Positions 9,646-58,521 of a stretch of 64,000 bases of DNA are shown in pieces. Location: contig JBGUEP010000001.1 in assembly GCA_041821245.1 (NCBI GenBank), positions 78,854 through 142,853 of the forward strand, in the 5' to 3' direction. Numbering within the stretch: the stretch's first letter is position 1; each line of letters begins with the position of its first letter. The notes under the pieces are model-generated. The model was not told the DNA's origin. It made no database searches and saw nothing but the letters and a program-made list of their open reading frames with translations. The translations under genes and the position numbers were made by a program. The stretch is from Prolixibacteraceae bacterium (GTDB lineage: Bacteria > Bacteroidota > Bacteroidia > Bacteroidales > Prolixibacteraceae).

Positions 9646-9744
9646 GCTTTTATAAAATTAAAAACATGGATATTTTCTCAAGAGACCTTACATTAGTGTT
9701 GGTTTAAGAATCAGTCTTGAACCAATCAATTCGGTAAATAAAAC

Positions 9745-9791: not shown

Positions 9792-10023
9792 AAACTTTTT
9801 GAAGCTTGTATTCTGCAATAATTTCTTCTACTGTTAGAACACTGTTAGGTAAAATGTTTCCCGGACAAACTCCTGTAGCCTTATGTACCAGATAACGTTT
9901 GCATGTGATATGATTCTCCGAGTCACAGAAAAAATGAATATAAGCTTTACTTGTTAAGGTTTTACCTTTTAAAATTCCATTGTAAATGGGACATTTTTCG
10001 TAATTTGGACACTTATTGCTCAT
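9790..10023 (-). CDS. Small cysteine-rich hypothetical protein (possible zinc-ribbon)
   Basis: 77 aa with Cys at CPNYEKCP...FFCDSENHITC...GVCPG. Sits in a sensible intergenic context, convergent with dgkA and divergent from the amidase. No family recognised. Confidence 0.35.
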   Translation of the reverse strand: MSNKCPNYEKCPIYNGILKGKTLTSKAYIHFFCDSENHITCKRYLVHKATGVCPGNILPNSVLTVEEIIAEYKLQKV

Positions 10024-10135
10024 AATGGTAAGGGTTTATTGGTTGCATACAATTTAGTGAAAACAGCGTATCTTTTTACTATTATGTTAGAAAATTTAAC
10101 AAATTTAATACATATAAAACTCTAGATATCAGTAT

Positions 10136-24074: not shown

Positions 24075-25595
24075 TTAGTCTGCTTCAATAATTTCAAGTA
24101 GTGAATCGAGGTATTCCCGGTCGTTGGCCAAACGAGGTATTTTATTTTGGCCTCCCACTTTCCCGCGTTTTTTCATCCATTTGTAAAAGGTGTCTTTTGG
24201 TGCATTCACCACTTCAAGATGTGTTAAAGCCATGTTTTTATATCGTTTGGCTTCATAATCAGAATTGAGCGACTGTAATTCTTTATCCAAAATTTGAGTG
24301 AAATTTTCCAGATTATCAGGTTCCTTTTCAAATTCAATAATCCACTGATGGCAACCCTTACTTTCGGCATTCATAAATACTGGTCCGGCCGAATATTCAC
24401 TGATAATTGCATTGGTTGCTTTGCACGCTACCTGTAATCCTTTATTGGCATTATCAATGATGAGTTCTTCACCAAAAGCATTAATGAAATGTTTGGTTCG
24501 GCCGGTAATTTTGAATTTGAACGGGTACTTTTTGGTGAACTTTACGGTATCACCAATCACATAGCGCCATAAACCACCATTGGTACTAATCACCATGGCG
24601 TAGTTAATGCCGGTTTCCACCTCGCTAAGCGGAATGGCTTTTTTGTCATCCTTCAAAAACTCATCCATGGCAATAAATTCGTAATAAATACCATTATCGA
24701 GCATAAGGAGCAGGTCGTCCTGATTCAAATCATTTTGAAGGCCAAAAAATCCTTCGGATGCATTGTAGGTATTCATGTAATGCATGTTTGGCGAAGGAAT
24801 CAGTTTTTCGTATTGTTCGCGATAGGGTTCGAAATTGATTCCACCATGCGCAAATACTTCGAGATTTGGCCATACTTCCAGCAAGTTTTCCTTACCAGTT
24901 ACCTCTAGTACTTTTTTAATCATTACTAAAAACCACGAAGGCACTCCTGAAAAGCTGGTAATATTTTCGTTAATGGTAGTTTGTATGATTTTATCAATCT
25001 TTTCCTCGAAGTCGGGAAGTAAGGCAATTTCTGAAGATGGGGCATTTAAGAACTTCGATAAATAGGGCAAGTTCTGCAACATAACGGCTGAAAGGTCACC
25101 CGTGCGCGTAGAAGTGCTTAAAGTGCTAACCTTATGACTTCCGCCAATGGTCAGGTTTTTACCTTTCAATATTTTGGTGTCAGGATTACTCTTAATGTAA
25201 TGGGCAAAAACATCAATCGAGGCTTTGTAGTGGCACTTGTGTAAAGATTCATCACTAACCGGGATGTATTTGCTTTTATCGTTGGTGGTCCCTGATGATT
25301 TGGCGAACCATTTTACTTTACCCGGCCAGAGTATATTTTTTTCACCGGCAATCATTCTTTCAATCCATGATTTTAAGACCTCGTAATCGGTTAGAGGAAC
25401 TTTACGCGCGAATTCAGCAGACGAATGTATATGCGAAAAATCATACTGAATTCCCCATTCGGTTTTCCTTGCTGCACGAATTAAATCTTTCAAGACCTGT
25501 TCTTGTTGTTCCACAGGATATTTACTGAAATATTCAAACTTCTTGTAGCGAAGGGTAAAAATTTTTTGAATGCTCTGATTAAACAATCGGATCAT
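24075..25595 (-). CDS. GH3-family (auxin-responsive-promoter family) adenylate-forming enzyme homologue
   Basis: 506 aa. N-terminal FTLRYKKFEYF...VLKDLIRAARKTEWG and the overall length match bacterial GH3 (acyl-acid amido synthetase-like) proteins common in Bacteroidota. Confidence 0.7.
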   Translation of the reverse strand: MIRLFNQSIQKIFTLRYKKFEYFSKYPVEQQEQVLKDLIRAARKTEWGIQYDFSHIHSSAEFARKVPLTDYEVLKSWIERMIAGEKNILWPGKVKWFAKSSGTTNDKSKYIPVSDESLHKCHYKASIDVFAHYIKSNPDTKILKGKNLTIGGSHKVSTLSTSTRTGDLSAVMLQNLPYLSKFLNAPSSEIALLPDFEEKIDKIIQTTINENITSFSGVPSWFLVMIKKVLEVTGKENLLEVWPNLEVFAHGGINFEPYREQYEKLIPSPNMHYMNTYNASEGFFGLQNDLNQDDLLLMLDNGIYYEFIAMDEFLKDDKKAIPLSEVETGINYAMVISTNGGLWRYVIGDTVKFTKKYPFKFKITGRTKHFINAFGEELIIDNANKGLQVACKATNAIISEYSAGPVFMNAESKGCHQWIIEFEKEPDNLENFTQILDKELQSLNSDYEAKRYKNMALTHLEVVNAPKDTFYKWMKKRGKVGGQNKIPRLANDREYLDSLLEIIEAD

Positions 25596-38862: not shown

Positions 38863-39981
38863 TTATTGAATGGCAATACGAGTGATACGTCGCGCATTTT
38901 TATCGGTGGTTGTTTTAACCACATAAATACCTTTATTTAATGGAGGCAATTGAACTTGGACACGATGATCGGCCTGGAAATTTTGAATGAAAACCTGTTC
39001 TCCTCTTAAATTAAACAGCGTTACCTGATGAATTAATTCGCTTGTTGATGTAATGGTAAAAGATTGTTTCACCAGTGTTGGGAAAATATTTATACCTTGA
39101 TCTATAAGGTTTTCAACTGCATTTCCGCCATTGGTTTCTGCAACACAAGCATGTTTGCCTAAATCATTCCAAATATCTTTGTAACTACGGTAAGTGTATG
39201 GTTCTCCTGTAAGTTCATCAACACCTTGCAGGGCAACTGAAACGGTATCCCATTCTGCACTCACATTAAATTGTGCGGGATTTTCTTTAACGCCGTCAAC
39301 GACATCGTATTTTCTACGTAAAGTATGGTCTTGTGTCCAGGCCAACCAATAAGGTCCGTAGGCTGCCGCTTTGGTATCGTCGGTAGATTTAATGATGTAA
39401 TCGGTAATGGTATGTTTGTATTCCACTTCACCAATTTTGTAGGTGATAATGGTATCGGTAAAAGGTGCCCACCCGGCTTCTGCTTTAATTTTAGAACCCA
39501 GACCAATGTTGCCGATCAGGTCAACGGGCAAAGCATCGGCTGCATCACCTGTTTCGCTTTTCAATAAAGCAATGGCATCATTTCCATTCATATAGGTTGC
39601 AGCCGGATAAGGATTATCCATTTGCGTGGCCAGTGCTTGCAATGCAGCGTCAGGTGCAGGTGAAGATTCGGTTGACGTTGTTTGCCCGTTTACCAAAACA
39701 AAAGTTTTATAGGGTTCCAATGTGCCGGTAAGTTGAACAATACCACCGGTTGAATAATCGGTACTCCCATTGCTAAAACGAGCAACATAATATTTCGTCA
39801 TATCGATGGTCTGATTGGTTGGATTATATATTTCAACAGCTTTGTTGTTTCCTGTGCCTTCAACATATTCTGAGAAAAACAAATCGGTTTGGGCTAGTGC
39901 TCCAAAGGACAAGAGCAAGCCGGCTAAAAAGGGTAAAAATTTAATCATATAATTCGCAATTTTAATTAGTAAAGATCTCAA
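38863..39981 (-). CDS. Secreted lamin-tail-domain protein with T9SS C-terminal sorting domain
   Basis: Signal peptide. LTD (DLFFSEYVEGTGNNKAVEIYNPTNQTIDMTKYYVARFSNGS). C-terminal VTLFNLRGEQVFIQNF...GIYVVKTTT. Confidence 0.6.
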   Translation of the reverse strand: MRSLLIKIANYMIKFLPFLAGLLLSFGALAQTDLFFSEYVEGTGNNKAVEIYNPTNQTIDMTKYYVARFSNGSTDYSTGGIVQLTGTLEPYKTFVLVNGQTTSTESSPAPDAALQALATQMDNPYPAATYMNGNDAIALLKSETGDAADALPVDLIGNIGLGSKIKAEAGWAPFTDTIITYKIGEVEYKHTITDYIIKSTDDTKAAAYGPYWLAWTQDHTLRRKYDVVDGVKENPAQFNVSAEWDTVSVALQGVDELTGEPYTYRSYKDIWNDLGKHACVAETNGGNAVENLIDQGINIFPTLVKQSFTITSTSELIHQVTLFNLRGEQVFIQNFQADHRVQVQLPPLNKGIYVVKTTTDKNARRITRIAIQ

Positions 39982-45323: not shown

Positions 45324-46046
45324 CTAAAAAGTATCCGTTAAATCAGCAATTTTAAAAAGTTTTTGCGTATCTAAAACTATAATTTTTCGCCCTTTTTTTT
45401 CAATTAAATTTTCCTTTTCAAATGTGCTTAAGATGCGAACAAGGGTTTCAACCGCAATCCCAACAATGTTTGCAAAGTCTTCGCGGGTAAGCACAATTTG
45501 AATCTCATTGTCGTCATTTCTGTTTTGTCTGAAGTTTTCGTTGAGGATGAGTAGCGTAAGTGCCACCCTTTCTCTTACACTTTTTGTGGTAAAGGTAGCG
45601 ATGAAGTTAACCATTACTCCAAATTCATGACTTAGCTTTTTAGTCAGCAGGTTGGATAGTTCTTCGTGTTTATCCAACAATCGATCTAGTTTATCTTTTG
45701 AAACAAAACCGATCAATGAATCGGTAATTGCGGCGGCCGAATCCTGATATTTTTCTTCTCCCAGAAATGCTGCGTATCCAATCATCTCACCTTCGTTACA
45801 CAAATAAATTATTTGTTCCTTTCCTCCATTGAGACTTTTAAATTTTTTTACCTTTCCCTTCTTCACAAAATAAATGCCTAGTGGGTATGCCCCTTCTGTG
45901 AAAATATTTTGCCCCCGCTTAAATTGCTTGGCGATCATCTGGTTTTTGAAATCTAGCTGAACATTTTCAGGTAAGCTTTCAAAATCAAATTCCCGTTTCA
46001 GGTTAAATCGTTCCTTTATTTTATTTAAAAGACTATCCATATTCAA
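45324..46046 (-). CDS. Crp/Fnr-family transcriptional regulator (cNMP-binding domain plus C-terminal HTH)
   Basis: cNMP-binding beta-roll (IFTEGAYPLGIYFVKKGKVKKFKSLNGGKEQIIYLCNEGEMIGY) and HTH (LTREDFANIVGIAVETLVRILSTFEKENLIEKKGRKIIV). No N-terminal Cys cluster, so it is not an FNR-type O2 sensor. Confidence 0.8.
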   Translation of the reverse strand: MNMDSLLNKIKERFNLKREFDFESLPENVQLDFKNQMIAKQFKRGQNIFTEGAYPLGIYFVKKGKVKKFKSLNGGKEQIIYLCNEGEMIGYAAFLGEEKYQDSAAAITDSLIGFVSKDKLDRLLDKHEELSNLLTKKLSHEFGVMVNFIATFTTKSVRERVALTLLILNENFRQNRNDDNEIQIVLTREDFANIVGIAVETLVRILSTFEKENLIEKKGRKIIVLDTQKLFKIADLTDTF

Positions 46047-46086: not shown

Positions 46087-46516
46087 CTTTATTCCTGATT
46101 TAGATCAAGATTACGATTTCCAAATGAATTACTTTTGTCAATAATTAAGATTATATTTTTTGAATTATTTTATGTCATTTCCGTGTTGTCATTGTTAACT
46201 GTTTTGTTTCTGGTGTTGGGGATTATAGGAATTTTATTTGTTTAGGTAAAGAACAGAGCATTGGTTTCCATTACTGTTGTAACAACAAATGTAATAATTC
46301 CACATAATACATAGATATTTAGGTTGGTAAGTGTTGTTCCGACCATTCGGATACTTCACTATTTGAAATTCTTTTGATAAGAAAATTGCCATCTGAAATT
46401 ACACAAATCTAAGTGCCAGGTCACAATTCGATGATGCCATCAAGGATAAGCAGATTCATTGTTTGGTATGTACTGACACTGAATTAGGTTTAATTATTTA
46501 TGAACTAAAAAAGAGA

Positions 46517-48532
46517 ATGGAAAAACATATTGTTGAAATATTAAATTTGTTGGCCATCTTGTCTTTGGCAATTTTCCCATTTTTGAAGGCACGAAAATTA
46601 GCTTTTACGGCACTTGTTTCAATTATCGTTCAAGTTCTTTTATCGTTCGTTCTGGTTTATCAGGTTTTTACCAATGGAAGCGTCGAATACAGCTATAGCG
46701 GGTCGTTAATCACAGGAAGTATTTCGGTGAAAATTGATTATTTGTCGGCATGGTTCATTCTGGTTATCGTGTTTACCTATTTCACAGGTGCCTGGTATGG
46801 AATACACTACATGAAAAAATACCGTGAACAAACAAGCAACCTAATTTTACATGCCATTGCTTACATATTCGTTTTTATAGGCTTGATTGATATTTGCATT
46901 GTGCAAAACAGCATTGTGTTTCTGGTTGTTTGGGAAATTATGGCTTTTAGTTCATTTATCGTGATCGTTTTTGAACACTATAACAAAGAAACCTTAAAGG
47001 CGGGATTAAATTTTTTGATTCAGTCGCACATCTCCATTCTGTTTTTAACCATCGCATTTATTTGGGCCAAAGTAAAAACAGGTTCTTTTGATTTTTCAGC
47101 CATTTCGGTTTATACCGCACTTCATCCACGCATGGGTTTAGGTTTGTTCGCCTTGTTTTTTATCGGATTTGCAATAAAAGCAGGATTCGTACCTTTTCAT
47201 ACCTGGCTACCCCATGCACACCCTGTTGCTCCTGCCCATATTTCAGGTGTAATGTCGGGAGTGATTATTAAAATCGGAATTTTTGGAATTTTACGAATGC
47301 TCACAATAATCAACGCCAATTATACCATCATTGGAGTTTGCATCCTGATCATTTCAATAGTTACTGGTTTATACGGGGTAATGATGGCCATTGTGCAAAA
47401 TAACCTGAAACGTTTGCTAGCCTATAGTAGTATCGAAAACATTGGGATTATTGGTTTGGGAATTGGGTTGGGTTGTCTCGGAAAAGCATCGAATCATCAA
47501 TGGCTGGTGATTGCCGGATTTGGAGGGGCATTGCTGCACACACTCAACCATTCACTTTTTAAATCGTTACTTTTTTATATTGCCGGAAATGTTTATCAGG
47601 CTACCCACACCTTGAATATTGATTCGTTGGGCGGGTTGCTGAAGAAAATACCACGCACTGCATACCTGTTTCTTATCGGATCGTTGGCTATTTGCGGCTT
47701 TCCGCCTTTCAATGGATTTGTGTCGGAGTTCTATATTTACAATGGATTTTTCAAAGGCCTTCAATCGAACCAGTCGATGTTTAACCTTGCCATGCTTTTT
47801 TCCATTTTTGCCTTGGTGCTTATTGGTGGATTGGCATTAATCACCTTTACCAAAGCTTTTGGTATTGTTTTTTTAGGCAAAAGCCGCGAACCTTTGCATG
47901 TTGATGAAACATTCGATAATCAGGCTGTGGTTTTCCCATTCTATCTCATTGCCTTGGCCATGTTGCTTGTGGGTTTATTTCCGATTCTGTTTTCGTCATC
48001 GCTATTAAAAACAAGTTCTCTTTTTTTCAATACAAGTGATTCATATTCTTTTGTATATCTTGACAAAATGGTAGGTGATATTTCTTCGATTGGATTTTAT
48101 TCAATCGGTTTTATATTGCTGGCGGCTACTTTTTTCGTTTTACGAAAGATGATCACCAGCAAACGACCTTCGCAAACTTATGAAACCTGGGGTTGTGGTT
48201 ATGTTGCCCCAATCCAAAAGGCACAATATTCAGGGAGATCATACACTCGAACTTATAGCCGTCTGTTTGCTCCTATAGTATATGAAGGGAAAGATTTTAA
48301 ACGAATTAAAAAGACAAGTCTTTATCCGAATCATCGTAAATTCTCGACTTACTACGCCGACTTTTGGGAACAATACCTTGTACTTCCGCCTACACGATGG
48401 GTCTCTTTTATTTTGGATAAGTTTCAATTTATTCAAAATGGAAATGTTCAGTCGTATGTGATTTATGGTTTAGCTTTTATTCTTGTGATTGTGATCGTTT
48501 CGATGTTAAGTTCAATTAATCTGGGAGTTTAA
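46517..48532 (+). CDS. Complex-I NuoL / hydrogenase-4 HyfB-like antiporter-type membrane subunit (copy 1)
   Basis: ORF 46463..48532. Start placed at ATG 46517 (MEKHIVEILNLLAIL...) by alignment with the start of paralogue copy 2. WLPHAHPVAPAHISGVMSGVIIKIGIFGILR matches the NuoL/ND5 consensus region ([31 protein letters not shown]). Confidence 0.8.
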   Translation: MEKHIVEILNLLAILSLAIFPFLKARKLAFTALVSIIVQVLLSFVLVYQVFTNGSVEYSYSGSLITGSISVKIDYLSAWFILVIVFTYFTGAWYGIHYMKKYREQTSNLILHAIAYIFVFIGLIDICIVQNSIVFLVVWEIMAFSSFIVIVFEHYNKETLKAGLNFLIQSHISILFLTIAFIWAKVKTGSFDFSAISVYTALHPRMGLGLFALFFIGFAIKAGFVPFHTWLPHAHPVAPAHISGVMSGVIIKIGIFGILRMLTIINANYTIIGVCILIISIVTGLYGVMMAIVQNNLKRLLAYSSIENIGIIGLGIGLGCLGKASNHQWLVIAGFGGALLHTLNHSLFKSLLFYIAGNVYQATHTLNIDSLGGLLKKIPRTAYLFLIGSLAICGFPPFNGFVSEFYIYNGFFKGLQSNQSMFNLAMLFSIFALVLIGGLALITFTKAFGIVFLGKSREPLHVDETFDNQAVVFPFYLIALAMLLVGLFPILFSSSLLKTSSLFFNTSDSYSFVYLDKMVGDISSIGFYSIGFILLAATFFVLRKMITSKRPSQTYETWGCGYVAPIQKAQYSGRSYTRTYSRLFAPIVYEGKDFKRIKKTSLYPNHRKFSTYYADFWEQYLVLPPTRWVSFILDKFQFIQNGNVQSYVIYGLAFILVIVIVSMLSSINLGV

Positions 48533-48535
48533 GTT

Positions 48536-50566
48536 ATGGGAAAAAACCTGATTGAAATAATTAACCTGCTCGCAATCATCACCATTGTGATTTTACCTTT
48601 TTTAAGTACAAAAAAAATGGGCATTGTCACGCTCACGGTAATTTCAGTTCAAGTTGTTTTGGCTTTTGTGGTTGCGTTTTTGGCTTTTTCAGACGGGTTT
48701 ATTTCATTCACATACAAGGGTTCGCTGGCTACCGGCGAAATTCCTATCCGCATTGACTATTTATCGGCATGGTTTATCGGTATTATCAGTTTCACTTTTT
48801 TTACCGGGGCATGGTATGGTTTTCAGTATATGAAAATGTATCGTGATCAACACTCCAATTTAGTTTTACATGCAACTGCATTTATTCTGGCATACACCGC
48901 GCTAATCGACATTTGCATCGTTCAAAATGCTATCGTCTTTTTAGTGATGTGGGAAATAATGACCATTAGTTCGTTTATAACCATCATTTTTGAACACTAT
49001 AAAAAAGAGACCTTAAAGGCTGGGATCAATTTTTTCATTCAATCGCATGTGGCCATTCTTTTTCTCACCATCGCCTTTATTTGGGTGAAAGTAAAAACCG
49101 GATCATTCGACTTTGCAGAAATATCAAAGCTCACAGCCATGCATCCTGCAATGGGAATCGGATTGTTTGTCTTTTTCTTTATTGGATTTGCCATCAAAGC
49201 CGGATTTGTTCCTTTTCATACCTGGCTCCCATTGGCCCACCCGGTAGCACCTGCCCATATCTCAGGAATCATGTCGGGCGTTATCATAAAAATTGGCATT
49301 TTTGGCATTCTGCGTATGATTGTTTTGATCAAAACCGATTACATGACCATTGGTTACTTCATTTTAATTGTTTCGGTAATTACCGGAGTGTACGGGGTTT
49401 CGCTGGCCATTATTCAACACAATCTGAAACGTTTACTAGCCTACCACAGCATCGAAAATATAGGGATCATTGGCATTGGCATTGGTCTGGGATGTCTGGG
49501 CATTGGGATGGAAAATCAGTTATTGCTTATGGCTGGATTTGGCGGGGCGCTGCTACACACCTTGAACCACTCACTTTTTAAATCGCTGTTGTTTTATAGT
49601 GCCGGAAATGTTTATCAGGCAACTCACACCTTAAATATTGAATCGTTGGGAGGACTAATCAAAAAGATTCCACAATCGACCTATCTGTTTTTGATTGGAG
49701 CTTTGGCCATTTGTGGTTTGCCTCCTTTTAATGGTTTTGTTTCCGAATTTCTGATTTACAATGGCTTGTTCAAAGGATTGTTGTCGAATCATTTTATGTT
49801 TATACTGGTGATGCTTTTTTCCATTTTAGCCATGGTTTTAATCGGAGGCCTTGCCCTTATTTGTTTTACCAAGGCTTTTGGAATAGTGTTTTTAGGCAAA
49901 GCCCGAAAAGAATTGCCATCGGATAAAATCATTGAAAAACCCTTACAAGTTGGCTCCTTATACTTAATTGCTTATGCGATAACCGTGATTGGGGTATTGC
50001 CGATTTTATTCACTTCGCCCCTAAGTAAAGCAGCACATCTTTTTCAAAAAAATCCAGACCTGTTTCTTGCTGATGGTCTCACCCAAAACCTAACTATTTT
50101 GACTCTTATCGGTTTGTATTCTTTGGGCTTTGTGGCACTTACAGTACTGGCTTTGTATATCCGACGATTGATTATAAAACGCCGATCGGTTTTAACTGAC
50201 GCTACCTGGGGTTGTGCCTATGTGGGTGATGGAAAAAATATGCAGTACACCGCTTCATCTTTCATCCGTACTTTCAGGAAACTGGCTGAGCCGCTGTTTT
50301 TAATTAAAAAAACAAAAACAGTGGCAACCGGCCTTTACCCAACAACCATAAAACAAAGCACACACCCCTACGACAGATTGGAGTCGGCTTTGATTGACAA
50401 ACCAATTTATTTTTTCAGAAAGGTGTTGAACCGCTTTGTTTTTTTGCAGAATGGTAACATTCAAGCCTACATTCTTTACGGATTTATTTTTATTTCAACG
50501 GCCATAATTTTGCCAATACTAATTTCTAAGTTCATGGTATTTATTCACTTCTTAAATCAATTGTAA
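48536..50566 (+). CDS. Complex-I NuoL / HyfB-like antiporter-type membrane subunit (copy 2, tandem paralogue)
   Basis: Roughly 70 percent identical to copy 1 along its full length (e.g. YLSAWFIGIISFTFFTGAWYGFQYMKMYRDQHSNLVLHA vs YLSAWFILVIVFTYFTGAWYGIHYMKKYREQTSNLILHA). Starts 3 bp after copy 1 ends. Confidence 0.8.
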   Translation: MGKNLIEIINLLAIITIVILPFLSTKKMGIVTLTVISVQVVLAFVVAFLAFSDGFISFTYKGSLATGEIPIRIDYLSAWFIGIISFTFFTGAWYGFQYMKMYRDQHSNLVLHATAFILAYTALIDICIVQNAIVFLVMWEIMTISSFITIIFEHYKKETLKAGINFFIQSHVAILFLTIAFIWVKVKTGSFDFAEISKLTAMHPAMGIGLFVFFFIGFAIKAGFVPFHTWLPLAHPVAPAHISGIMSGVIIKIGIFGILRMIVLIKTDYMTIGYFILIVSVITGVYGVSLAIIQHNLKRLLAYHSIENIGIIGIGIGLGCLGIGMENQLLLMAGFGGALLHTLNHSLFKSLLFYSAGNVYQATHTLNIESLGGLIKKIPQSTYLFLIGALAICGLPPFNGFVSEFLIYNGLFKGLLSNHFMFILVMLFSILAMVLIGGLALICFTKAFGIVFLGKARKELPSDKIIEKPLQVGSLYLIAYAITVIGVLPILFTSPLSKAAHLFQKNPDLFLADGLTQNLTILTLIGLYSLGFVALTVLALYIRRLIIKRRSVLTDATWGCAYVGDGKNMQYTASSFIRTFRKLAEPLFLIKKTKTVATGLYPTTIKQSTHPYDRLESALIDKPIYFFRKVLNRFVFLQNGNIQAYILYGFIFISTAIILPILISKFMVFIHFLNQL

Positions 50567-50567
50567 T

Positions 50568-51473
50568 ATGCTTAGCTTTTTACTCATCATATTGTCGAGC
50601 TTTGTTTTTATGGGCATTGTTGTTCGCACCAAAAGCTTGTCATCGGGACGAAAAGGACCAGGTATATTTCAACCTATGAAAGATATTTTCAGACTTTGGA
50701 AAAAAGGATCGGTAATCAGCACCACAACAAGCCTGATCTTTCAAATTGCCCCAACCATTTATTTTGCTTCTATTGTAATGGCCATTTTAATGATCCCTCA
50801 TGGAAAATTACCGGGAATTATTTCATTCGACGGCGATTTTGTAATGTTTGCCTATGTACTTGCCATTGGGAAATTTATGATGATTGTTTCGGCACTCGAT
50901 ACGGGAAGCAGCTTTGAAGGGATGGGAGCGAGCCGCGAGGCACTTTTCTCCATGTTGGTTGAACCTGCGTTTTTTATCATCATGGGATCGTTTGCGCTTT
51001 TCACCGGCCATACTTCATTTTACGAGATATTCAGTACGCTCAATTACGGACCTTACATTTCGTACCTGATTGGCGGCCTGGCCACTTTTGTGATCATACT
51101 AATTGCCATGGTCGAAAATAGCCGAATGCCCGTTGACGATCCGAAGACCCACCTGGAGCTTACCATGGTTCACGAAGTAATGATTTTGGACAATAGCGGT
51201 TTCGATTTGGGTTTGATCATGTATGCCACTCCCCTAAAATTTGCCATGTATGGCGCACTGATCTCAAACTTTTTTATTGGCGAAATCCCAATTCTGATAT
51301 CGATTCCAATGTTTTTCGGGATTCAATTTGTAATTGCTGTTTTCGTTGGCTTACTTGAATCGTTTATGGCACGGTTCAGGATGAACCACAACCCTCAGTT
51401 TATATTTATTCTAACTTCGGTATCGCTGCTTATCTTTTTCGGAGTGTTACTGGTATTGGGTAAATTCATTTAA
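50568..51473 (+). CDS. NuoH / HycD / HyfC-like membrane subunit
   Basis: IVVRTKSLSSGRKGPGIFQPMKDIFRLWKKGSV matches the NuoH N-terminal ERK...R.GPN..G..G.LQP.AD..K consensus. Eight predicted TM helices. Confidence 0.8.
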   Translation: MLSFLLIILSSFVFMGIVVRTKSLSSGRKGPGIFQPMKDIFRLWKKGSVISTTTSLIFQIAPTIYFASIVMAILMIPHGKLPGIISFDGDFVMFAYVLAIGKFMMIVSALDTGSSFEGMGASREALFSMLVEPAFFIIMGSFALFTGHTSFYEIFSTLNYGPYISYLIGGLATFVIILIAMVENSRMPVDDPKTHLELTMVHEVMILDNSGFDLGLIMYATPLKFAMYGALISNFFIGEIPILISIPMFFGIQFVIAVFVGLLESFMARFRMNHNPQFIFILTSVSLLIFFGVLLVLGKFI

Positions 51474-51484
51474 ATTATACGACT

Positions 51485-52114
51485 ATGACTGATATCTTGC
51501 TGATAACATTTACCATAACGCTACTCTTTATGAGTATTGCCAACCGGATTTATACCTACCTGAATATTCTGATTTTTCAGGGGATAATCCTTTTTGGCGC
51601 CACCTATCTTTCATTGACCGAAATTAACACGGCCAATCTGATATTCATCATGATTGAAACCATTGTGGTAAAAGCCATTGCTGTGCCCATGTTTATGAAA
51701 TACATCATTAAACGAAATAAAATCACCAGAGAAACAGAACCCTTTCTGCCCAACTTCATTTCGTTGATTATTGTAACCGCGATCATCATCATTACAATTA
51801 TTTTATCAAGTGCTGTTAGCGATGTAAATCTCGATAAGACTTATTTTGTTGTCGCTTTATCGAACCTTTTTACGGGTTTGTATTTAATTGTTTCACGTAA
51901 AAAAATCATTGTCCATGTTATCGGATATCTGGTTATTGAAAATGGAGTTTTTGTATTGGCACTTGCCGTTGGTAACGAAATGCCGATGCTGGTAAACATG
52001 GGAATTATGCTCGATATTTTTGCCAGTGTGTTAATTCTTGGGATCTTCTTCAATAAAATTGGCGATTATTTGAATAACCCTGATGTAACTCTTCTAAGCA
52101 ATCTAAAAGATTAA
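51485..52114 (+). CDS. HyfE-like (NuoK-related) small membrane subunit
   Basis: 209 aa, all hydrophobic helices. The C-terminal GYLVIENGVFVLALAVGNEMPMLVNMGIMLDIFASVLILGIF resembles the NuoK/HyfE conserved E-N-G region. Confidence 0.5.
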   Translation: MTDILLITFTITLLFMSIANRIYTYLNILIFQGIILFGATYLSLTEINTANLIFIMIETIVVKAIAVPMFMKYIIKRNKITRETEPFLPNFISLIIVTAIIIITIILSSAVSDVNLDKTYFVVALSNLFTGLYLIVSRKKIIVHVIGYLVIENGVFVLALAVGNEMPMLVNMGIMLDIFASVLILGIFFNKIGDYLNNPDVTLLSNLKD

Positions 52115-52118
52115 TAAT

Positions 52119-53543
52119 ATGATTGGTATTTTTTTAATAGGAACAATTGTCATTTCGGCCTGGCTGTTTTTTAACAAAAACAGAATTGTCAACTACTCTT
52201 TACTTGTGGGCTATACGATTCTACTTTGGGCATTGGGATTTTACGAGTACAATCATATTAACCTCATCGAACTTAGATTCTTTAAACCTGATGCTTTAGG
52301 AATTTTACTTCTTTTTGCCATGTGTATTGTTAGCATTCCCGCCTTTTACCATGGTTACAGGTATATTGTTACGCACGATGAAACGCCTCACACCCGAGGA
52401 TTGTTCTTTGCCGCGATGGTATTGTTGATGTCGGCCTGCAGTATGGCATACCTGTCAAACCACATTGCAGTTACCTGGATTTTTGTTGAAATTACAACAC
52501 TTAGTGCATCGGCACTAATCTACCATCACCGCAACATTAGGGCACTCGAAGGAGTTTGGAAATATGTTTTTATTTGTGCGCTCAGTATCACTTTTATCTA
52601 CATTGGCATTCTGTTTTTGAGTTTATCGATGAAACAAGCGGGTATCGAAGGCATGTCGTTCGATTCAATTCTTCAAAATGTGGAAAAGCTTGATTTGTTT
52701 TGGTTGAAACTCGCCTTCCTTTTCATTTTCACCGGATTTACAGCAAAAATTGGTTTGGTACCCATGTATACTGCGGGTGTCGATGCCAAGGATAAAGCCC
52801 CGGCTCCGGCAGGTGCATTGCTCTCAAGTGTTTTAATGAACATGGGATTTGTGGGTATTTACAGGGTGTATGCAATTCTTACCCACACTGAGTTACAACA
52901 TTGGGCATCAGTTATTATGATTATATCTGGCCTGTTATCAGTATTCGTAGCAACGGTTTACATGACCCATATCAAAAACATCAAACGCATGTTCGCCTAT
53001 TCGAGCATCGAACACATGGGATTAGTGATGTTGGGCCTAGCCGTTGGTGGAATTGGTGTTTATGCCGCCATTTTACATCTCATTCTTCATACTTTTGTAA
53101 AATCCAGTTTATTTTTTCAATACAATCAAATTTTTCTGGTTTATAAAAGCAAAAGCATCTACGATTCAGGTCATTACTTTAAATACAACAAGATTGGTGC
53201 TATTGTAATCTTGTTGGCCTTTATTTCGGCCACGGCTATGCCTCCATCAGGTTTGTTCGTCTCCGAATTTTTAATTTTTCAGGCCCTGTTCGAAGCTCAT
53301 TACATTGTTATTCTAATTGCACTTTTAATCCTATTGACCATGATTATCTGGGGATTTGGAACAAATATTTTCAAATTACTTTTTACGCCTCCATTGAAAC
53401 TAGATGAAACCACTATTCCTAAGATAAATCCTTGGAATTCGTTCTCTCAATTTGCATTGTTGGCATTGTCGGTTTATTTAGCCTATAGCCCGCCACCAGT
53501 ATTTGTGCAACTGATTCAGGATGCTGTAACCCTTGTTCAATAA
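52119..53543 (+). CDS. NuoN/NuoM / HyfF-like antiporter-type membrane subunit
   Basis: 474 aa with about 14 TM helices and a proton-pumping-subunit core (FTAKIGLVPMYTAGVDAKDKAPAPAGALLSSVLMNMGFVGIYR). Confidence 0.7.
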   Translation: MIGIFLIGTIVISAWLFFNKNRIVNYSLLVGYTILLWALGFYEYNHINLIELRFFKPDALGILLLFAMCIVSIPAFYHGYRYIVTHDETPHTRGLFFAAMVLLMSACSMAYLSNHIAVTWIFVEITTLSASALIYHHRNIRALEGVWKYVFICALSITFIYIGILFLSLSMKQAGIEGMSFDSILQNVEKLDLFWLKLAFLFIFTGFTAKIGLVPMYTAGVDAKDKAPAPAGALLSSVLMNMGFVGIYRVYAILTHTELQHWASVIMIISGLLSVFVATVYMTHIKNIKRMFAYSSIEHMGLVMLGLAVGGIGVYAAILHLILHTFVKSSLFFQYNQIFLVYKSKSIYDSGHYFKYNKIGAIVILLAFISATAMPPSGLFVSEFLIFQALFEAHYIVILIALLILLTMIIWGFGTNIFKLLFTPPLKLDETTIPKINPWNSFSQFALLALSVYLAYSPPPVFVQLIQDAVTLVQ

Positions 53544-53549
53544 AACGAT

Positions 53550-55052
53550 ATGAATACCATAAAACTACATAACAATCAGACGGTTAATTTGAAGGACATT
53601 CCCGAACTGAACTATCAAGAGTTCATGAATACGAACCTTGAATTACTGGCTAATAATCCCGAAAGGCATTGTGTTAACTATTTTGGTGTTGACGATGAAA
53701 ACTGCCTGACACTCTACTGTTGTATTGCCGACGATGCAACGCACGAAATTTATGTTTCATGTTCTGTTTTGAAAGGAAAAACTGAATACCCATCGTTTTC
53801 GGCTCAGAATCATAATTTTGAAAAGTTTGAAAGGGAAATCCACGAAAACTTTGGAATTGCATATACCGATCATCCCTGGTTAAAACCTTTCAGGTACAGC
53901 CACAATCGATTCGATTCAGGAAAAACCATTCGCAACTATCCGTTTTATGGGGTTGAAAGTGATGAATTGCATGAAGTAGGTGTTGGTCCGATTCATGCAG
54001 GGATTATCGAACCCGGGCATTTCCGTTTTATTTGTAACGGAGAACAAATCATGCACCTCGAAATTCAACTGGGCTATCAGCACCGGGGCATTGAACAACT
54101 GTTTCTGCAAAAAACAAAAATATTAGAGCGCGCTACACTTGCCGAAAATATAACAGGTGATACCACGGTTGGACATTCTACCGCGTTCGCAAATCTTTGG
54201 GAAAGCTTGAGTGATTACACAGCCGATCCTTCCTTGCAATTTTCGCGTACCCTTGCTCTCGAATTGGAACGTATTGCCATACATACCGGAGATATGGCAG
54301 GTGTATGTGCCGACATTGCTTACCAATTGGGCAACTCGGTTTATGGGCGCTTGCGAACCCCAATCGTTAACTTTTTCCAGGAATGGGGAGGCAATCGTTT
54401 GGCCAAAGGCTTAATCAGGCCCGGCAAAATAAACTACCCCTTTTCACCCGAATTAGGAAATCGGCTCATTGAAATTTTTAAAGCTTACGAGCCCGACTTT
54501 AACGAAATGACCCATAAGTTCTTTTCCCTTCCCAGCGCTTTGTCGCGTATGGAAAGGACAGGAATTGTAACTTACGACGAGGCACTTGAAATCGGTGCTG
54601 TGGGCATGGCTGCCCGTGCAAGTGGATTAAACAGAGATATTAGATCATCCCATCCGCACAATTTATACAATCAGACAATTACTCATGAACCCGAAATTAA
54701 ACATCATGGTGATGTGTATTCCAGGGTGCGGATTAGAAGGGAAGAAATTGTACAGTCTGTTTCCTATTGTAAAAAGCTGATAGAATCTATCCCTGAATTT
54801 GATTCGCCCAAAAATATTCCATTTAAACCTGGCAGTGACAAATTCACTATTGCATTGGTTGAAGGCTGGCGAGGCGAAATTTGTCATTGTGCCATTACCG
54901 ATGCTGAAGGAAAGTTGAAAATCTATAAAATTAAAGATCCATCGCATCACAATTGGATGGCTTTAGCTCAATCGGTAAGGAACAACGAAATTTCTGATTT
55001 CCCAATCTGTAACAAGAGTTTTAACCTATCATACAGTGGTCACGATTTATAA
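53550..55052 (+). CDS. NuoC-NuoD fusion / HycE-like large subunit homologue lacking all four Ni-Fe-binding cysteines
   Basis: N-terminal NuoC-like part (FEREIHENFGIAYTDHPWLKP), then the NuoD/[NiFe]-large-subunit core (GVGPIHAGIIEPGHFRF...GYQHRGIEQ). The N-terminal RxCGxCxxxH site reads ITGDTTVGHSTAF (both Cys replaced by Thr). The C-terminal DPCxxCxxH site reads DPSHHNWMA (Cys replaced by Ser and Asn). Confidence 0.8.
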   Translation: MNTIKLHNNQTVNLKDIPELNYQEFMNTNLELLANNPERHCVNYFGVDDENCLTLYCCIADDATHEIYVSCSVLKGKTEYPSFSAQNHNFEKFEREIHENFGIAYTDHPWLKPFRYSHNRFDSGKTIRNYPFYGVESDELHEVGVGPIHAGIIEPGHFRFICNGEQIMHLEIQLGYQHRGIEQLFLQKTKILERATLAENITGDTTVGHSTAFANLWESLSDYTADPSLQFSRTLALELERIAIHTGDMAGVCADIAYQLGNSVYGRLRTPIVNFFQEWGGNRLAKGLIRPGKINYPFSPELGNRLIEIFKAYEPDFNEMTHKFFSLPSALSRMERTGIVTYDEALEIGAVGMAARASGLNRDIRSSHPHNLYNQTITHEPEIKHHGDVYSRVRIRREEIVQSVSYCKKLIESIPEFDSPKNIPFKPGSDKFTIALVEGWRGEICHCAITDAEGKLKIYKIKDPSHHNWMALAQSVRNNEISDFPICNKSFNLSYSGHDL

Positions 55053-55067
55053 AAAAGGAAGATTGAA

Positions 55068-55829
55068 ATGTTAGATAATCTAAAAATATTATGGCATCAG
55101 GGGAAACAGTTTATTCCAGATGTTACCACCGCAAAAGTACCAGGCATCTTTAGAGGACGACCAATCATAACTAAAAATCAAGTGAATGAAGAGCTGCTGG
55201 TTGACTTATGTCCAACAAAAGCCATTTCAAGAAACCCATTGTGCATCGATTTGGGCAAGTGCACTTTTTGCGGCGAATGTGCGGTGCAATTTCCAGATAA
55301 GATTTCATTTACCAAGGATTATAAATTATCAACAAATATAAGGGAACGCTTAATAATTCATGAAGTTGAAGATGCGCCAATTATGGTTGATCCAACGCTT
55401 GTTCGAAAAGAAATTCATCGTTTGTTTGGACGTTCGCTTAAGTTGAGGCAGGTTTCAGCAGGTGGCGATAACAGTACTGAATGGGAATTGAACGCATCGA
55501 ATAATGTTCAGTTCGACATAAGCCGCTTTGGGATCGATTTTGTAGCCTCGCCTCGCCATGCCGATGGAGTTGTAATTACAGGCCCCATTACCTCAAACAT
55601 GGCCGAGTCCCTCGAACGATGCTACCATGCCATTCCCGAGCCTAAAATCATCATCCTTGCCGGTACTGATGCCATCAGCGGAGGTATTTTTGCCGACAGC
55701 CCGGCAATCGACCGGAGCTTTTTAACGAAATACCCAATCGACTTATATATTGCAGGTAACCCTGTTCATCCTTTAACATTTATCAATGGTGTATTAAATT
55801 TAACACGAACCAAATCTACCAGAAGATGA
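55068..55829 (+). CDS. Fusion of a ferredoxin-like (NuoI/HycF-related) domain with a NuoB / hydrogenase-small-subunit-like domain that lacks all four N2-cluster cysteines
   Basis: N-terminal DLCPTKAI...CIDLGKCTFCGECAVQFP has one possible 4Fe-4S site. The C-terminal part aligns to NuoB (SPRHADGVVITGPIT...EPKIIILAGTDAISGGIF...LYIAGNPVHP vs SPRQADLMVVAGT...EPKWVISMGACANSGG...VYIPGCPPRPE). The cluster cysteines are replaced: CC to N/S, C to T, C to N. Confidence 0.7.
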   Translation: MLDNLKILWHQGKQFIPDVTTAKVPGIFRGRPIITKNQVNEELLVDLCPTKAISRNPLCIDLGKCTFCGECAVQFPDKISFTKDYKLSTNIRERLIIHEVEDAPIMVDPTLVRKEIHRLFGRSLKLRQVSAGGDNSTEWELNASNNVQFDISRFGIDFVASPRHADGVVITGPITSNMAESLERCYHAIPEPKIIILAGTDAISGGIFADSPAIDRSFLTKYPIDLYIAGNPVHPLTFINGVLNLTRTKSTRR

Positions 55830-56245
55830 AGAATTTACGATTTGCTTTTGCCATAGGAGATGATAATCTAATTGCTGAAACGAAATTTAGTGATGCTTCT
55901 ATGATCCGAATTTACGAGTATCTTTTTACTGAAAAATGTTTGAATTTTATTTCAGAAGAGATAAATCCTGTTTTTGAAATAAAAGATCATGATGAAAAAG
56001 TCAGCATTTTGATTGATTTCCTCAGCAGCAATAATATTGATTTGCTTGTCGCAAAAAAATATGGAATAATGATAGAAGTTGAAAATAAATATTTTGTTCC
56101 AATAGTTGTTTCAAATTCATCACCCCAAAGAGTGGTCGAATTAATCACAAAACAAATCAACTGGCTTTATGATGAACTTGAATTAGAAAAAAAAGAACAC
56201 ATGATTATTCGAATTGACAAAGGTGTTTTTAAGTATAAATTATAA
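55826..56245 (+). CDS. Small hypothetical protein, possibly a NifX/NifB-like (Nitro_FeMo-Co family) cofactor-binding fold; translationally coupled to the preceding gene
   Basis: The ATGA start/stop overlap with 55068..55829 indicates coupling. MKNLRFAFAIGDDNLIAETKFSDASMIRIYEY resembles the MKIAIP..DG..S.HFG.A..F.IYE start of NifX-like proteins. The similarity is weak. Confidence 0.3.
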   Translation: MKNLRFAFAIGDDNLIAETKFSDASMIRIYEYLFTEKCLNFISEEINPVFEIKDHDEKVSILIDFLSSNNIDLLVAKKYGIMIEVENKYFVPIVVSNSSPQRVVELITKQINWLYDELELEKKEHMIIRIDKGVFKYKL

Positions 56246-56248
56246 GAA

Positions 56249-57238
56249 ATGAATAAAATAAATGCTGCAATTACAGGAATCGAATCCTACTTGCCCGAGT
56301 ATATTTTAACCAACGAAGAATTAAGCCAAATGGTTGATACCTCTGATGAGTGGATCATGCAACGAGTTGGAATTAAGGAAAGACGGATTCTTAAGGGCGA
56401 TGGTTTGGCCACCTCGGATATGGGTGCCGCGGCGACTAAAAAATTATTGGCTAAAACGGGTACAAAACCAGAAGAAATTGATTTTGTAATAGTGGCAACA
56501 GCAACGCCCGACATGTCTTTCCCTTCTACTGCTTGTCTCATAGCTGAAAAATCAGGTATAAAAAACTCCTGGGGCTTTGATTTGAGTGCAGCTTGTTCCA
56601 GTTTTTTGTTTGCACTTGAAACTGCCAGTCATTTTATTGAATCAGGAAAATATAAAAAAATTCTGTTGGTTGCTGCCGATAAAATGTCATCGATTACAGA
56701 TTATACAAATAGAAATACTTGCGTTTTGTTTGGCGATGCAGCTGTAGCTATGCTAATTGAACCTACAACGGAAGAAGTTGGCGTAATGGATTCCCTCTTG
56801 CAAATTGATGGTATTGGGAAAGACTTCCTTTATATGAAAGCGGGAGGATCATTGAAACCTGCTTCCCATGAAACGGTTGATGCAAAAGAGCATTTTATGT
56901 ATCAGGATGGAAAAGCCGTATTTAAAGTGGCTGTATCTAAAATGTCTGATGTTTCGGTAGAAATAATGAGGCGAAATGAATTAAAGCCTGAAGACCTGGC
57001 CTGGTTTATTCCTCATCAGGCAAATTTAAGGATCATTGACGCTGTTGGTCGTCGTATGGGCATGACTGCAGATAAAGTGATGATAAACATTGAAAAATAT
57101 GGAAATACAACCAATGCTACAATTCCATTATGCCTTTGGGAACTTGAGCATAAATTAAAGAAAGGTGATAATCTAATTTTATCTGCTTTTGGAGGAGGAT
57201 ATACGTGGGGATCGATCTATTTGAAATGGGCTTATTAA
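56249..57238 (+). CDS. fabH: 3-oxoacyl-ACP synthase III (KAS III)
   Basis: Cys-His-Asn triad context: [27 protein letters not shown]. Starts 4 bp after the previous gene. Confidence 0.9.
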
Positions 57239-57267
57239 TTAAGAAAAGATCTTTAAAAACAAACGAT

Positions 57268-58521
57268 ATGAAACTAAAAAGAGTTGTTATTACAGGATTA
57301 GGAGCTTTAACTCCCATTGGAAATAATGTTAATGATTTCTGGAAGAATCTTATTCAGGGTAAAAGTGGTATTGCCGAGATTACAAAATTTGATGCCTCTC
57401 CTTTTAAAACAAAATTTGCCGGAGAATTAAAAGGCTTCGATCCTTTGCTATTTATGGAAAAAGCACAAGCCCGCAAGATGGACTCCTATTCACAATATGC
57501 CGTTGCGGTTGTTGATGAATGCATCAAAGATTCAAATATTGATTTAAAAAATACCGATCTCAGCAAAGTTGGTGTAATATGGGGTACTGGTATTGGTGGC
57601 ATCGAAACTTTCGAAAAGGAGATTATTGAATATGGAGCAAATTTAGATTCCCCTCGTTTCAGTCCTTTTTTTGCTACTAAAATGATTTCGAATATGGCTG
57701 CCGGTAATATTTCAATTCATTATGGTTTTCGTGGAGTCAGTTATGTTACTGCATCAGCCTGTGCTTCAAGCAACAATGCAATTATCAATGCATATAATAA
57801 TATACAACTAGGTAAAGCTAATGTTATTTTTGCCGGAGGTTCTGAAGCAAGCATTACCCCTGCTGGAATTGGAGGGTTTAGTTCGATGAAAGCAATTTCG
57901 CAACGCAACGAATCCCCCGAAACAGCTTCTCGTCCCTTTGATGTTTCACGCGATGGTTTTGTATTGGCTGAAGGTGCCGGTGTAATTATGCTTGAGGAAC
58001 TGGAGCACGCTAAAAACAGGGGAGCAAAAATATATGGCGAAATTGCAGGTGGCGGCTGTGCTTCTGATGCCTACCATATTGCTGCACCTCATCCCGAAGG
58101 CATTGGTGCCGTGGCGGCAATGACCGAAGCCATTAACGAAGCCGGTTTGTTGCCCGAAGATGTCGACTATGTAAGTACGCACGGCACGGCTACTCCTATT
58201 GGCGACTTAAGCGAATGTAAAGCTATCGTAACCGTTTTCGAAAACTCGCTCGATAAATTACACATTAGTGCAACAAAATCAATGACCGGACACTTATTGG
58301 GTGCTGCCGGGGCAATTGAAGCAATTGCTTGTATAAAATCCATAAACACTGGAATCGTACCTCCAACCAGCAATCTCAATGAAATTGATCCTGCCATTGA
58401 TAAACGAATTAACTTAACGCCAAATGTAGCAGTAACGAAAACGGTGAATGTGGCTTTAAACAACACATTTGGTTTTGGTGGACATATTTTTGTTTCGCTT
58501 TTTAAGAAATACAAAGAATAG
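57268..58521 (+). CDS. fabF: 3-oxoacyl-ACP synthase II (KAS II)
   Basis: ORF 57205..58521. The likely start is ATG 57268 (MKLKRVVITGLGALTPIGN). Cys-His-His triad: SACASS, VSTHGTATPIGD, SMTGHLLGAAG. Confidence 0.9.
   Translation: MKLKRVVITGLGALTPIGNNVNDFWKNLIQGKSGIAEITKFDASPFKTKFAGELKGFDPLLFMEKAQARKMDSYSQYAVAVVDECIKDSNIDLKNTDLSKVGVIWGTGIGGIETFEKEIIEYGANLDSPRFSPFFATKMISNMAAGNISIHYGFRGVSYVTASACASSNNAIINAYNNIQLGKANVIFAGGSEASITPAGIGGFSSMKAISQRNESPETASRPFDVSRDGFVLAEGAGVIMLEELEHAKNRGAKIYGEIAGGGCASDAYHIAAPHPEGIGAVAAMTEAINEAGLLPEDVDYVSTHGTATPIGDLSECKAIVTVFENSLDKLHISATKSMTGHLLGAAGAIEAIACIKSINTGIVPPTSNLNEIDPAIDKRINLTPNVAVTKTVNVALNNTFGFGGHIFVSLFKKYKE

Follow-up and report, generated by a model that had tools for sequence, protein, structure and literature searches.

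A probable Ehr/Hyq-type membrane complex of Bacteroidota with a HycE-like large subunit lacking all four NiFe cysteines and a cluster-poor small subunit

A HycE-like protein is encoded in a stretch of 64,000 nucleotides from a Prolixibacteraceae bacterium (assembly GCA_041821245.1, contig JBGUEP010000001.1, positions 78,854 to 142,853 of the forward strand), which is referred to here as the window. Very probably this protein is the large subunit of a seven-gene membrane complex of the Ehr/Hyq type, whose lineage derives from group-4 [NiFe] hydrogenases, which lost the four cysteines of the NiFe centre long ago and which is not a hydrogenase. The complex almost certainly neither makes nor uses hydrogen. 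The Ehr (Ech- or energy-converting-hydrogenase-related) family was reportedly defined by Coppi and by Marreiros et al. in 2013. Its complexes have been regarded as a 'missing link' that joins membrane hydrogenases to complex I. They have no CxxC motifs, are considered unlikely hydrogenases and are of unknown function (PMC6349859, PMC10284858, PMC4758237). The Ehr/Hyq family is described as close to the group 4f hydrogenases (PMC6349859, PMC10284858, PMC3357923), and HydDB was trained to exclude Ehr from hydrogenases (PMC5037454). The window shares with Ehr a group-4-related large subunit without both CxxC motifs, encoded beside NuoL/HyfB-, NuoH-, HyfE-like and small-subunit genes. Such a Cys-less HycE-like large subunit is already known biology. 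The apparently undescribed part is the cluster-poor small subunit of Bacteroidota: searches of the accessible literature, a scope that does not cover the original Ehr papers, found neither a Bacteroidota Ehr nor an Ehr without N2 described.

The former NiFe site of the large subunit

According to Pfam, the large subunit consists of a NuoC-like 30-kDa domain (Complex1_30kDa, aa 30-114) fused to a NuoD/HycE-like domain (Complex1_49kDa). In a PDB-wide HMMER search the top match was E. coli HycE (7z0s_E) with 107 bits and E = 9e-30, followed by P. furiosus MbhL (6cfw_L) with 103 bits. T. thermophilus Nqo4 reached 79 bits, and other complex-I 49-kDa subunits came after it. Group-4 large subunits thus outscore NuoD/Nqo4 as homologues, by bit score as well as in a neighbour-joining (NJ) tree. 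An earlier reading of the sequence, made without database searches (the sequence-only reading), had proposed a HycE-like large subunit with both NiFe Cys pairs gone, and this is borne out by the HMMER and MAFFT comparisons with HycE. Both parts of the core signature named in that reading were located, VGPIHAGIIEPGHFRF at aa 145-160 (nt 53982-54029) and GYQHRGIEQ at aa 175-183.

The former proximal motif aligns with that of HycE without a gap (Table 1). C241 and C244 of HycE correspond to T202 and T205, as had been read, and the pattern R-x-C-G-x-C-x-x-x-H is absent. The histidine of this motif, HycE H248, is retained as H209, also as first read; E. coli NuoCD has an Asn at this position. The distal site requires correction. 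It had been placed at DPSHHNWMA, read as a substitution of the Cys pair by S..N behind a retained DP dipeptide. In the HMMER and MAFFT alignments this segment belongs elsewhere and pairs with AATYANWPT of HycE (YANWPTL being residues 503-509), EPTFPNLFT of MbhL and APSFVNLQS of Nqo4; its DP is not homologous to that of the DPC motif. The true former distal motif is NLSYSGHDL, where HycE C531 and C534 correspond to S494 and G497. The correct reading is therefore S..G, the DP of HycE is replaced by NL, and D-P-C-x-x-C-x-x-H/R does not occur. The large subunit terminates at the position of HycE R537, which we take to be the maturation cleavage point of HycE, without any C-terminal extension past it. 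The second NiFe ligand pair is located at the extreme C-terminus of hydrogenase large subunits (PMC3144371). A compensating CxxC pair was sought elsewhere in the large subunit and none was found; the conserved Cys residues are scattered (C162, C487, C445/C447 and C41/57/58). All four NiFe cysteines are absent, and judged from these alignments a canonical NiFe centre cannot bind.

The same substitutions were found in close relatives. In 120 relatives with at least 70% identity the four NiFe positions are without a canonical Cys throughout. The proximal consensus of these proteins is [NS]I[AT]GDT.VGH..AF and that of the C-terminus [NS]LSY[CS]GHDL, and residues D204, T205, H209, D463, H467, C162 and C487 are invariant or nearly so. 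This level of conservation does not fit the degenerated site that the sequence-only reading had envisaged; the loss is ancient, and the alignments point to an old active-site region that is remodelled and strongly conserved, not eroded. Much of the Cys-less radiation keeps C162 and C487, and also a Cys at position 496, where the window has Ser; C445-H446-C447 and C41/C57/C58 are fixed only within the close Bacteroidota family. The conserved non-canonical cysteines may form a replacement metal or thiol site.

The remodelled pocket does not resemble the quinone site of complex I either. H38 and Y87 of Nqo4 (T. thermophilus numbering), the ligands of the quinone head group, correspond to I153 and G203 in an HMMER alignment with 2fug_4 and are not conserved.

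Lost Fe-S ligands in the small subunit

The gene following the large subunit encodes a fused small subunit (Table 1). Its residues ~116-247 are HycG/MbhJ/NuoB-like, with PDB sequence matches to MbhJ (2e-21) and HycG (4e-18), and HycG and MbhJ are also the top Foldseek matches, with PSST among the neighbours. A remnant of HyfH/NuoI makes up the N-terminal 100 residues. The AlphaFold2 model of the small subunit, of moderate quality overall (mean predicted local distance difference test, pLDDT, 68), is confident in the ferredoxin remnant and in the NuoB core and drops below 50 in the loop that once held CxxC (aa 132-148).

NuoI, HyfH and HycF ferredoxin subunits carry two CxxCxxCxxxCP motifs, neither of which is complete in the small subunit. 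The first motif has lost its CxxCxxC, and in the second F75 stands in place of the fourth Cys. What is kept, in 76 of 76 relatives, is C48 (the 'CP' Cys of motif 1) together with C65, C68 and C71 (the CxxCxxC of motif 2). Given the standard topology of 2x[4Fe-4S] ferredoxins, these four residues make up one complete cluster site, whereas all four ligands of the other site are lost.

The ligands of the proximal cluster are replaced as well (Table 1). An alignment with E. coli NuoB places the N2 ligands, i.e. the CC pair, the Cys of GxC and the Cys of GCPP, and none of them is present in the small subunit. Small-subunit relatives are 63-90% identical, and among the same 76 proteins the replacements are fixed: D134 and N231 occur in all of them and D201 in 75. 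Position 137 is a Cys in 71 of the 76 and a Thr in the window. Thus, as far as the alignments tell, a canonical proximal [4Fe-4S] cluster cannot bind to this subunit.

This loss does not extend to all Ehr. Four loci with a Cys-less large subunit, L086 (Acidobacteriota), L087, L089 and L096, encode a fused small subunit with both ferredoxin motifs and the four proximal Cys. These relatives outside the subclade thus keep three complete Fe-S sites, whereas the subclade of the window keeps one. Locus L085, a true 4-Cys relative, has a separate ferredoxin of 114 aa and a small subunit of 158 aa. The cluster-poor form is common to the family of the window protein and to loci L084 (50% identity), L092 (47%) and L094 (44%). 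On this sequence evidence, the loss of two of the three Fe-S clusters is specific to a subclade. The likely order of events is a loss of the NiFe site along with the HyfH::HyfI fusion, giving rise to Ehr, and a later loss of two of the three Fe-S clusters in the subclade. The chain of electron carriers that led from a cytoplasmic donor to the former active site would then no longer be continuous.

The operon, its membrane arm and its relatives

The large subunit is encoded by the sixth of seven genes on the same strand (46463-55829), which are separated by gaps of 1-15 nt in the order HyfB-HyfB-HyfC-HyfE-HyfF-large subunit-HyfH::HyfI. The charged residues of the three antiporter-type subunits are intact. 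The Glu in transmembrane helix (TM) 5, the Lys in TM7, the Lys in TM11 and the Glu in TM12 are invariant in copy 1 of HyfB (51/51), copy 2 (59/59) and the HyfF-like subunit (75/75). The TM8 Lys is invariant in both HyfB copies, and the HyfF-like subunit has an Asn there, as does E. coli HyfF. Glu152 of the HyfE-like subunit occurs in all 71 relatives. In the HycD-like subunit the loop between helices 5 and 6, PVDDPKTHLELTMVHE, contains a 3-residue insertion, and its checked residues are invariant in 67 of 67 relatives. This loop is common to all Ehr loci examined, including the cluster-containing L086-L088, whereas Hyc, Hyf and Nuo have PFDxxEAEQEL. For the first HyfB copy the listed TTG start is probably too far upstream, as an ATG at 46517 matches the start of copy 2.

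Table 1. Coordinates of the operon, its neighbours and the motifs discussed in the text (positions within the window).
Feature	Position	Strand	Remarks
Crp-family regulator (cyclic-nucleotide-binding and Crp helix-turn-helix domains)	45324..46046	-	Pfam PF00027, PF13545, PF00325; divergent from operon
HyfB/NuoL-like antiporter-type subunit, copy 1	46463..48532	+	Proton_antipo_M 2e-52; NCBIfam 'hydrogenase 4 subunit B' 464 bits, below family cut-off
HyfB/NuoL-like subunit, copy 2	48536..50566	+	60% identical to copy 1 over 666 aa
HycD/HyfC/NuoH-like membrane subunit	50568..51473	+	Pfam NADHdh 3e-31; loop PVDDPKTHLELTMVHE at aa 189-204
HyfE-like membrane subunit	51485..52114	+	NCBIfam 'hydrogenase 4 membrane subunit' 3e-17; weak Oxidored_q2
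HyfF/NuoN-like antiporter-type subunit	52119..53543	+	Pfam and NCBIfam families
Large subunit, EhrL/HyqG-type	53550..55052	+	ATG start, 500 aa, intact
Former proximal NiFe motif NITGDTTVGHSTAF	54147..54188	+	aa 200-213; column for column with HycE RVCGICGFAHSTAY (residues 239-252)
Segment DPSHHNWMA	54936..54962	+	aa 463-471; homologue of HycE AATYANWPT, Nqo4 APSFVNLQS
True former distal NiFe motif NLSYSGHDL	55023..55049	+	aa 492-500; pairs with HycE DPCYSCTDR (529-537)
Fused HyfH(NuoI)::HyfI(NuoB/HycG)-like small subunit	55068..55829	+	253 aa; Oxidored_q6 3e-19; NuoI-family matches aa 58-98
Remnant ferredoxin domain LCPTKAI...CIDLGKCTFCGECAVQFP	55206..55295	+	C48, C65, C68, C71 invariant; compared with L085-L087, L089, L096; NdhI alignment
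GGDNSTEWE	55461..55487	+	Homologue of HycG GGCNGCEIE; Cys48 -> D134, Cys51 -> T137
GTDAISGG	55662..55685	+	Homologue of HycG GACGNSGG; Cys115 -> D201
AGNPVHP	55752..55772	+	Homologue of HycG PGCPPTP; Cys145 -> N231
139-aa open reading frame (ORF)	55826..56245	+	4-nt overlap with small-subunit stop codon; no significant family match; homologue only in L007
fabH, fabF	56249-58521		Directly after the 139-aa ORF

Relatives of the operon were collected in a species scan with one genome per species. At least 584 genomes carry a relative, and the best 80 of them are nearly all Bacteroidota (Prolixibacteraceae, Paludibacter, Lentimicrobiaceae, Salinivirgaceae, Labilibaculum). Where contig ends do not cut a locus short, all 80 related Bacteroidota loci have the order [B1]-B2-C-E-F-G-HI, which recurs in the distant members L086, L087 and L092. 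Most of the Bacteroidota loci have two HyfB copies, whereas distant Ehr loci and hyq have one. One Prolixibacteraceae protein from a metagenome-assembled genome (MAG), P0001, is 100% identical to the large subunit of the window; the other relatives share 62-83% identity and are nearly all 497-503 aa long. A cultured carrier is Labilibaculum antarcticum (large subunit P0024, small subunit P0332). Locus L093 contains an orphan at 9001-10503 (P0124), an Ehr-type NuoC::HycE-like large subunit with 47% identity to that of the window. It lies between mutS and an unrelated gene of 532 aa and was recorded on 10 contigs; the 9 kb to each side of it contain no genes for membrane or small subunits.

The wider family was recovered by a search of 1.8 billion cluster representatives, which returned 504 clusters at E < 1e-30. 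Nearly all of the best 150 clusters carry 'G-D-[ST]' and 'LSYxGxDL', down to 32% identity. A handful of proteins at 34-37% identity have full hydrogenase motifs (R[IV]CG[AV]C...H and LCYSCTDR) and have VGPIHAGIIEPGHFRF in common with the window protein. In the NJ tree rooted on E. coli NuoCD, HycE/HyfG are the first to diverge, followed by the 4-Cys proteins close to the base of the Cys-less radiation, in which the window protein is deeply nested. This tree was calculated from BLOSUM distances without support values and serves for coarse placement alone. The Cys-less radiation includes Acidobacteriota, Nitrospirota, Wallbacteria, Hydrogenedentota and others. Its signatures as derived here, which are not a published definition, are 'G-D-[ST]' in place of G-x-C, the C-terminal 'LSYxGxDL' and the HycD loop 'DDPxTHLELTM', and all three are found in the window. 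These data support a hydrogenase ancestry of the Cys-less radiation; the loss of the NiFe site is old and family-wide.

The sequence-only reading had likewise derived the protein from a hydrogenase and not from NuoD. The origin stands, through the bit scores, the VGPIHAGIIEPGHFRF segment shared with the 4-Cys hydrogenases, the tree and H209; the argument from the DP dipeptide does not. A placement in the NuoD lineage, as part of the 11-subunit complex I form (a quinone reductase) that occurs in Bacteroidota (PMC3144371), is hardly tenable. The NCBI name of P0001 is 'NADH-quinone oxidoreductase subunit C', and the best NCBIfam matches of the large subunit are NuoD models, but these stay far below their cut-offs (137 vs 360 bits). 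HycE and MbhL score above Nqo4, the window protein nests with 4-Cys hydrogenases in the NJ tree, and neither the quinone-ligand positions of Nqo4 nor the N2 ligands are conserved. The neighbouring genes are of the Hyf type (HyfB, HyfE, HyfF), and NuoA, J and K are absent. The Q-module of complex I (NuoB, NuoCD, NuoI) has homologous folds and no NiFe site, with NuoC and NuoD fused in E. coli and B. fragilis; the window differs from it in the absent N2 ligands and equivalents of Nqo4 H38 and Y87, and in its Hyf-type membrane subunits.

A decaying relic, i.e. a pseudogenised hydrogenase operon in drift, is effectively refuted by conservation. The missing NiFe site and the two missing Fe-S clusters look like the result of stepwise degeneration, but the ORFs are intact and of constant length and order in at least 80 loci, with relatives in at least 584 species-level genomes. 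The proteins are 62-90% identical, many functional residues are invariant in every subunit, and the replacement residues are themselves fixed. This conservation indicates, at the sequence level, that the operon is under strong purifying selection.

One of the closest known systems is hydrogenase 4 (formate hydrogenlyase 2, FHL-2) of E. coli, encoded by hyfABCDEFGHIJ; its HyfB, C, E, F, G, H and I all have counterparts in the window, in the same order. E. coli hydrogenase 3 (FHL-1, hyc, PDB 7Z0S) provides the best solved match for the large subunit, and its HycG matches the small subunit. The window complex differs from these systems in several ways. It has no NiFe site and no proximal cluster, and of HyfH half is left, which is fused to HyfI. 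The window encodes no HyfA, HyfD, HyfJ, FdhF, maturation protease or hyp proteins, and the HycD loop reads 'DDPKTHLELTM' instead of 'DxxEAEQEL'. P. furiosus MBH (6CFW) and MBS/MBX (6U8Y) likewise combine a group-4 peripheral module with an Mrp-like membrane arm, and MbhL and MbhJ are the second-best and the best sequence match of solved structure for the large and the small subunit, respectively. MBS is a redox enzyme that keeps its proximal cluster and a ferredoxin-type subunit, unlike the small subunit of the window, from which the proximal ligands are gone. MBX/MBS is a precedent for a hydrogenase-derived complex without NiFe chemistry (PMC6349859).

The hyqBCEFGI operon of Azorhizobium caulinodans shares the gene order B-C-E-F-G-I with the window. 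Its HyqG is a NuoC::NuoD fusion of 504 aa without both CxxC motifs and with a few other conserved Cys (PMC3357923). This 'endo-hydrogenase' is claimed, from genetics, to oxidise and evolve H2 (PMC3357923, PMC2650096). By analogy, the window complex might be a genuine hydrogenase with a non-canonical active site, for which the gene order, the comparable 500-aa fusion without CxxC (PMC3357923) and the genetic evidence of H2 recycling in A. caulinodans (PMC2650096, PMC3357923) speak. This is nevertheless very improbable. All four NiFe ligands are absent, the window contains no hyp or maturation genes, and the Hyq authors themselves call the NiFe site of HyqG 'uncertain, if not unlikely'. Ehr is also left out of the hydrogenases by HydDB and by later authors (PMC5037454, PMC10284858). 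Moreover, four N2-type proximal Cys are stated for all HyqI orthologues (PMC3357923), whereas the window small subunit has none and carries D134/T137/D201/N231 instead. HyqI numbering implies no N-terminal ferredoxin domain, unlike the small subunit of the window with its NuoI-like remnant, and HyfB is duplicated in the window but not in Hyq.

The surroundings of the operon offer few further clues. Hyp, maturation-protease, formate-dehydrogenase and NuoEF genes were not found within the 64-kb window, and no partner oxidoreductase or maturation gene is conserved around the 80 related loci. The sole conserved neighbour is a Crp-family gene, present at the same upstream, opposite-strand position in 10 loci; with its single Cys, the regulator in the window is not an Fnr-type Fe-S sensor. 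The 139-aa ORF behind the small subunit is probably co-transcribed with the operon here, yet it stands outside the conserved module. It was considered as an assembly factor of the HycH/HyfJ type and rejected, as it shows no HycH similarity and no family match and is not conserved. The fabH and fabF genes follow without a gap or terminator-like site; this arrangement recurs only in L007, and functional partnership was rejected because they adjoin the operon in that locus alone. Scans for promoters and terminators upstream and downstream of the operon were uninformative, and the sigma-70 consensus is in addition unsuited to Bacteroidota. Elsewhere in the window, large proteins with C-terminal sorting domains of type IX secretion are encoded at 999-4964, 13650-16574, 33509-36040 and 38863-39981. 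Lamin-tail domains occur in most of them, a CotH kinase-like domain in one and PLD-like domains in one. A full-length GH3-family protein resembling acyl-acid amido synthetases (N, M and C domains) is encoded at 24075-25595 on the minus strand.

Possible function of a complex without a continuous electron chain

The HycD loop and the pocket residues of the large subunit are identical in cluster-containing and cluster-less Ehr, which suggests that the core function does not need the Fe-S chain. We favour, without calling it probable, a reading of the sequence data in which the membrane arm moves H+ or Na+ as a secondary cation/proton antiporter similar to Mrp rather than as a redox pump, and the peripheral arm acts as its cap. 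The intact antiporter-like membrane arm would still translocate H+/Na+. The peripheral arm would serve as a conformational or regulatory cap that does not conduct electrons, and the remodelled pocket (D204, T205, H209, D463, C162, C487) would couple to the membrane arm together with the Ehr-specific HycD loop. The single remaining cluster might be structural, or a sensor of redox state or O2. The three antiporter-like subunits of the window keep every canonical charged residue of TM5/7/8/11/12 except that of TM8 in the HyfF-like subunit, among them the TM5 Glu, the TM7 Lys and the TM12 Lys/Glu that are conserved in MrpA/D-like subunits. Mrp antiporters lack a NuoB/C/D/I-like peripheral arm and a NuoH-like subunit, so that the likeness is one of working principle and membership is not claimed.

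Several points weigh against an antiporter with a regulatory cap. We know of no Mrp antiporter that needs a peripheral arm, and it would therefore be unparsimonious to keep four Q-module domains for regulation alone. A catalytic role could explain just as well why the pocket and one Fe-S site are so strictly conserved. The retained cluster presumably occupies an N6b-like position, which we assigned from general ferredoxin topology and from Nqo9 numbering, and the Cys at position 137 of most relatives could bind some metal along with the Asp, Asp and Asn. If the H2 uptake and evolution reported for the Cys-less Hyq are true, chemistry independent of NiFe is possible in the family (PMC3357923, PMC2650096). 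In Geobacter sulfurreducens the Ehr proteins of GSU0739-0745 (EhrA-1, EhrC, EhrL, EhrS) reach higher levels on formate, a hint that at least some Ehr have a redox role (PMC7894505).

The formate response also belongs to the evidence for the strongest competing explanation, which is that the complex has remained a redox enzyme. Electrons from a soluble donor, for instance ferredoxin, would pass through the single [4Fe-4S] cluster to a new acceptor, either a metal or cofactor at D134/C137/D201/N231 or the thiols C162, C445/C447 and C487, and on to menaquinone or another substrate, driving ion pumping as in other Ehr, MBS and complex I. We consider this doubtful, though not far-fetched. The four Cys of the ferredoxin remnant are invariant, and so are the residues that replace the old proximal site and are potential metal ligands. 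C162 and C487 are kept family-wide and C445-H446-C447 in the close family, and cluster-containing Ehr have a complete chain of three clusters to the same pocket. However, no Fe-S cluster known to us is held by Asp/Asp/Asn with one Cys or none, and the small subunit of the window itself has a Thr at position 137. The outer cluster, which receives the electrons in Hyc and Nuo, is the one that has lost all four ligands, its position being assigned from ferredoxin topology. The complex-I quinone ligands are missing, and no conserved partner oxidoreductase is encoded nearby.

Alternatively, the Asp/Thr/His/Cys pocket might catalyse a non-redox reaction (hydration, decarboxylation or a metal-dependent reaction) coupled to ion translocation, comparable to CupA on cyanobacterial NDH-1MS or to the DabAB CO2-hydration systems. 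The pocket, including H467, is polar and invariant and is unaltered despite the Fe-S cluster loss, and the membrane arm is intact. However, Pfam and NCBIfam scans found no similarity to hydratase or carbonic-anhydrase-type sites, no conserved substrate-related genes lie nearby and the proposal is purely analogical. It is thus distinctly improbable.

Extending the antiporter reading to the lineage gives a broader proposal, which is possible but on balance unlikely: the Bacteroidota-centred Ehr subclade would run without a continuous electron chain, with a non-redox peripheral arm that binds a ligand or a metal, or senses the redox state, and that gates or drives a translocator similar to Mrp. 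If this is true, the core function of the whole Ehr family would be independent of the Fe-S wire.

In public annotations some of the relatives (P0001-P0120 and P0271-P0390) are named 'Ni,Fe-hydrogenase III large/small subunit' and others 'NADH-quinone oxidoreductase subunit C/B'. Neither name suits proteins without NiFe, N2 and quinone ligands, and such gene names inflate the inferred H2 metabolism and respiration of Bacteroidota MAGs. In this subclade the scaffold, the coupling loop and all checked ion-translocation residues are kept, whereas the NiFe site, the N2-type cluster and one ferredoxin cluster have been discarded. If the complex is active, it would be a natural experiment that separates the ion-translocation parts of the complex-I/hydrogenase architecture from the parts that deliver electrons, and the cultured L. 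antarcticum offers a tractable system in which this can be tested.

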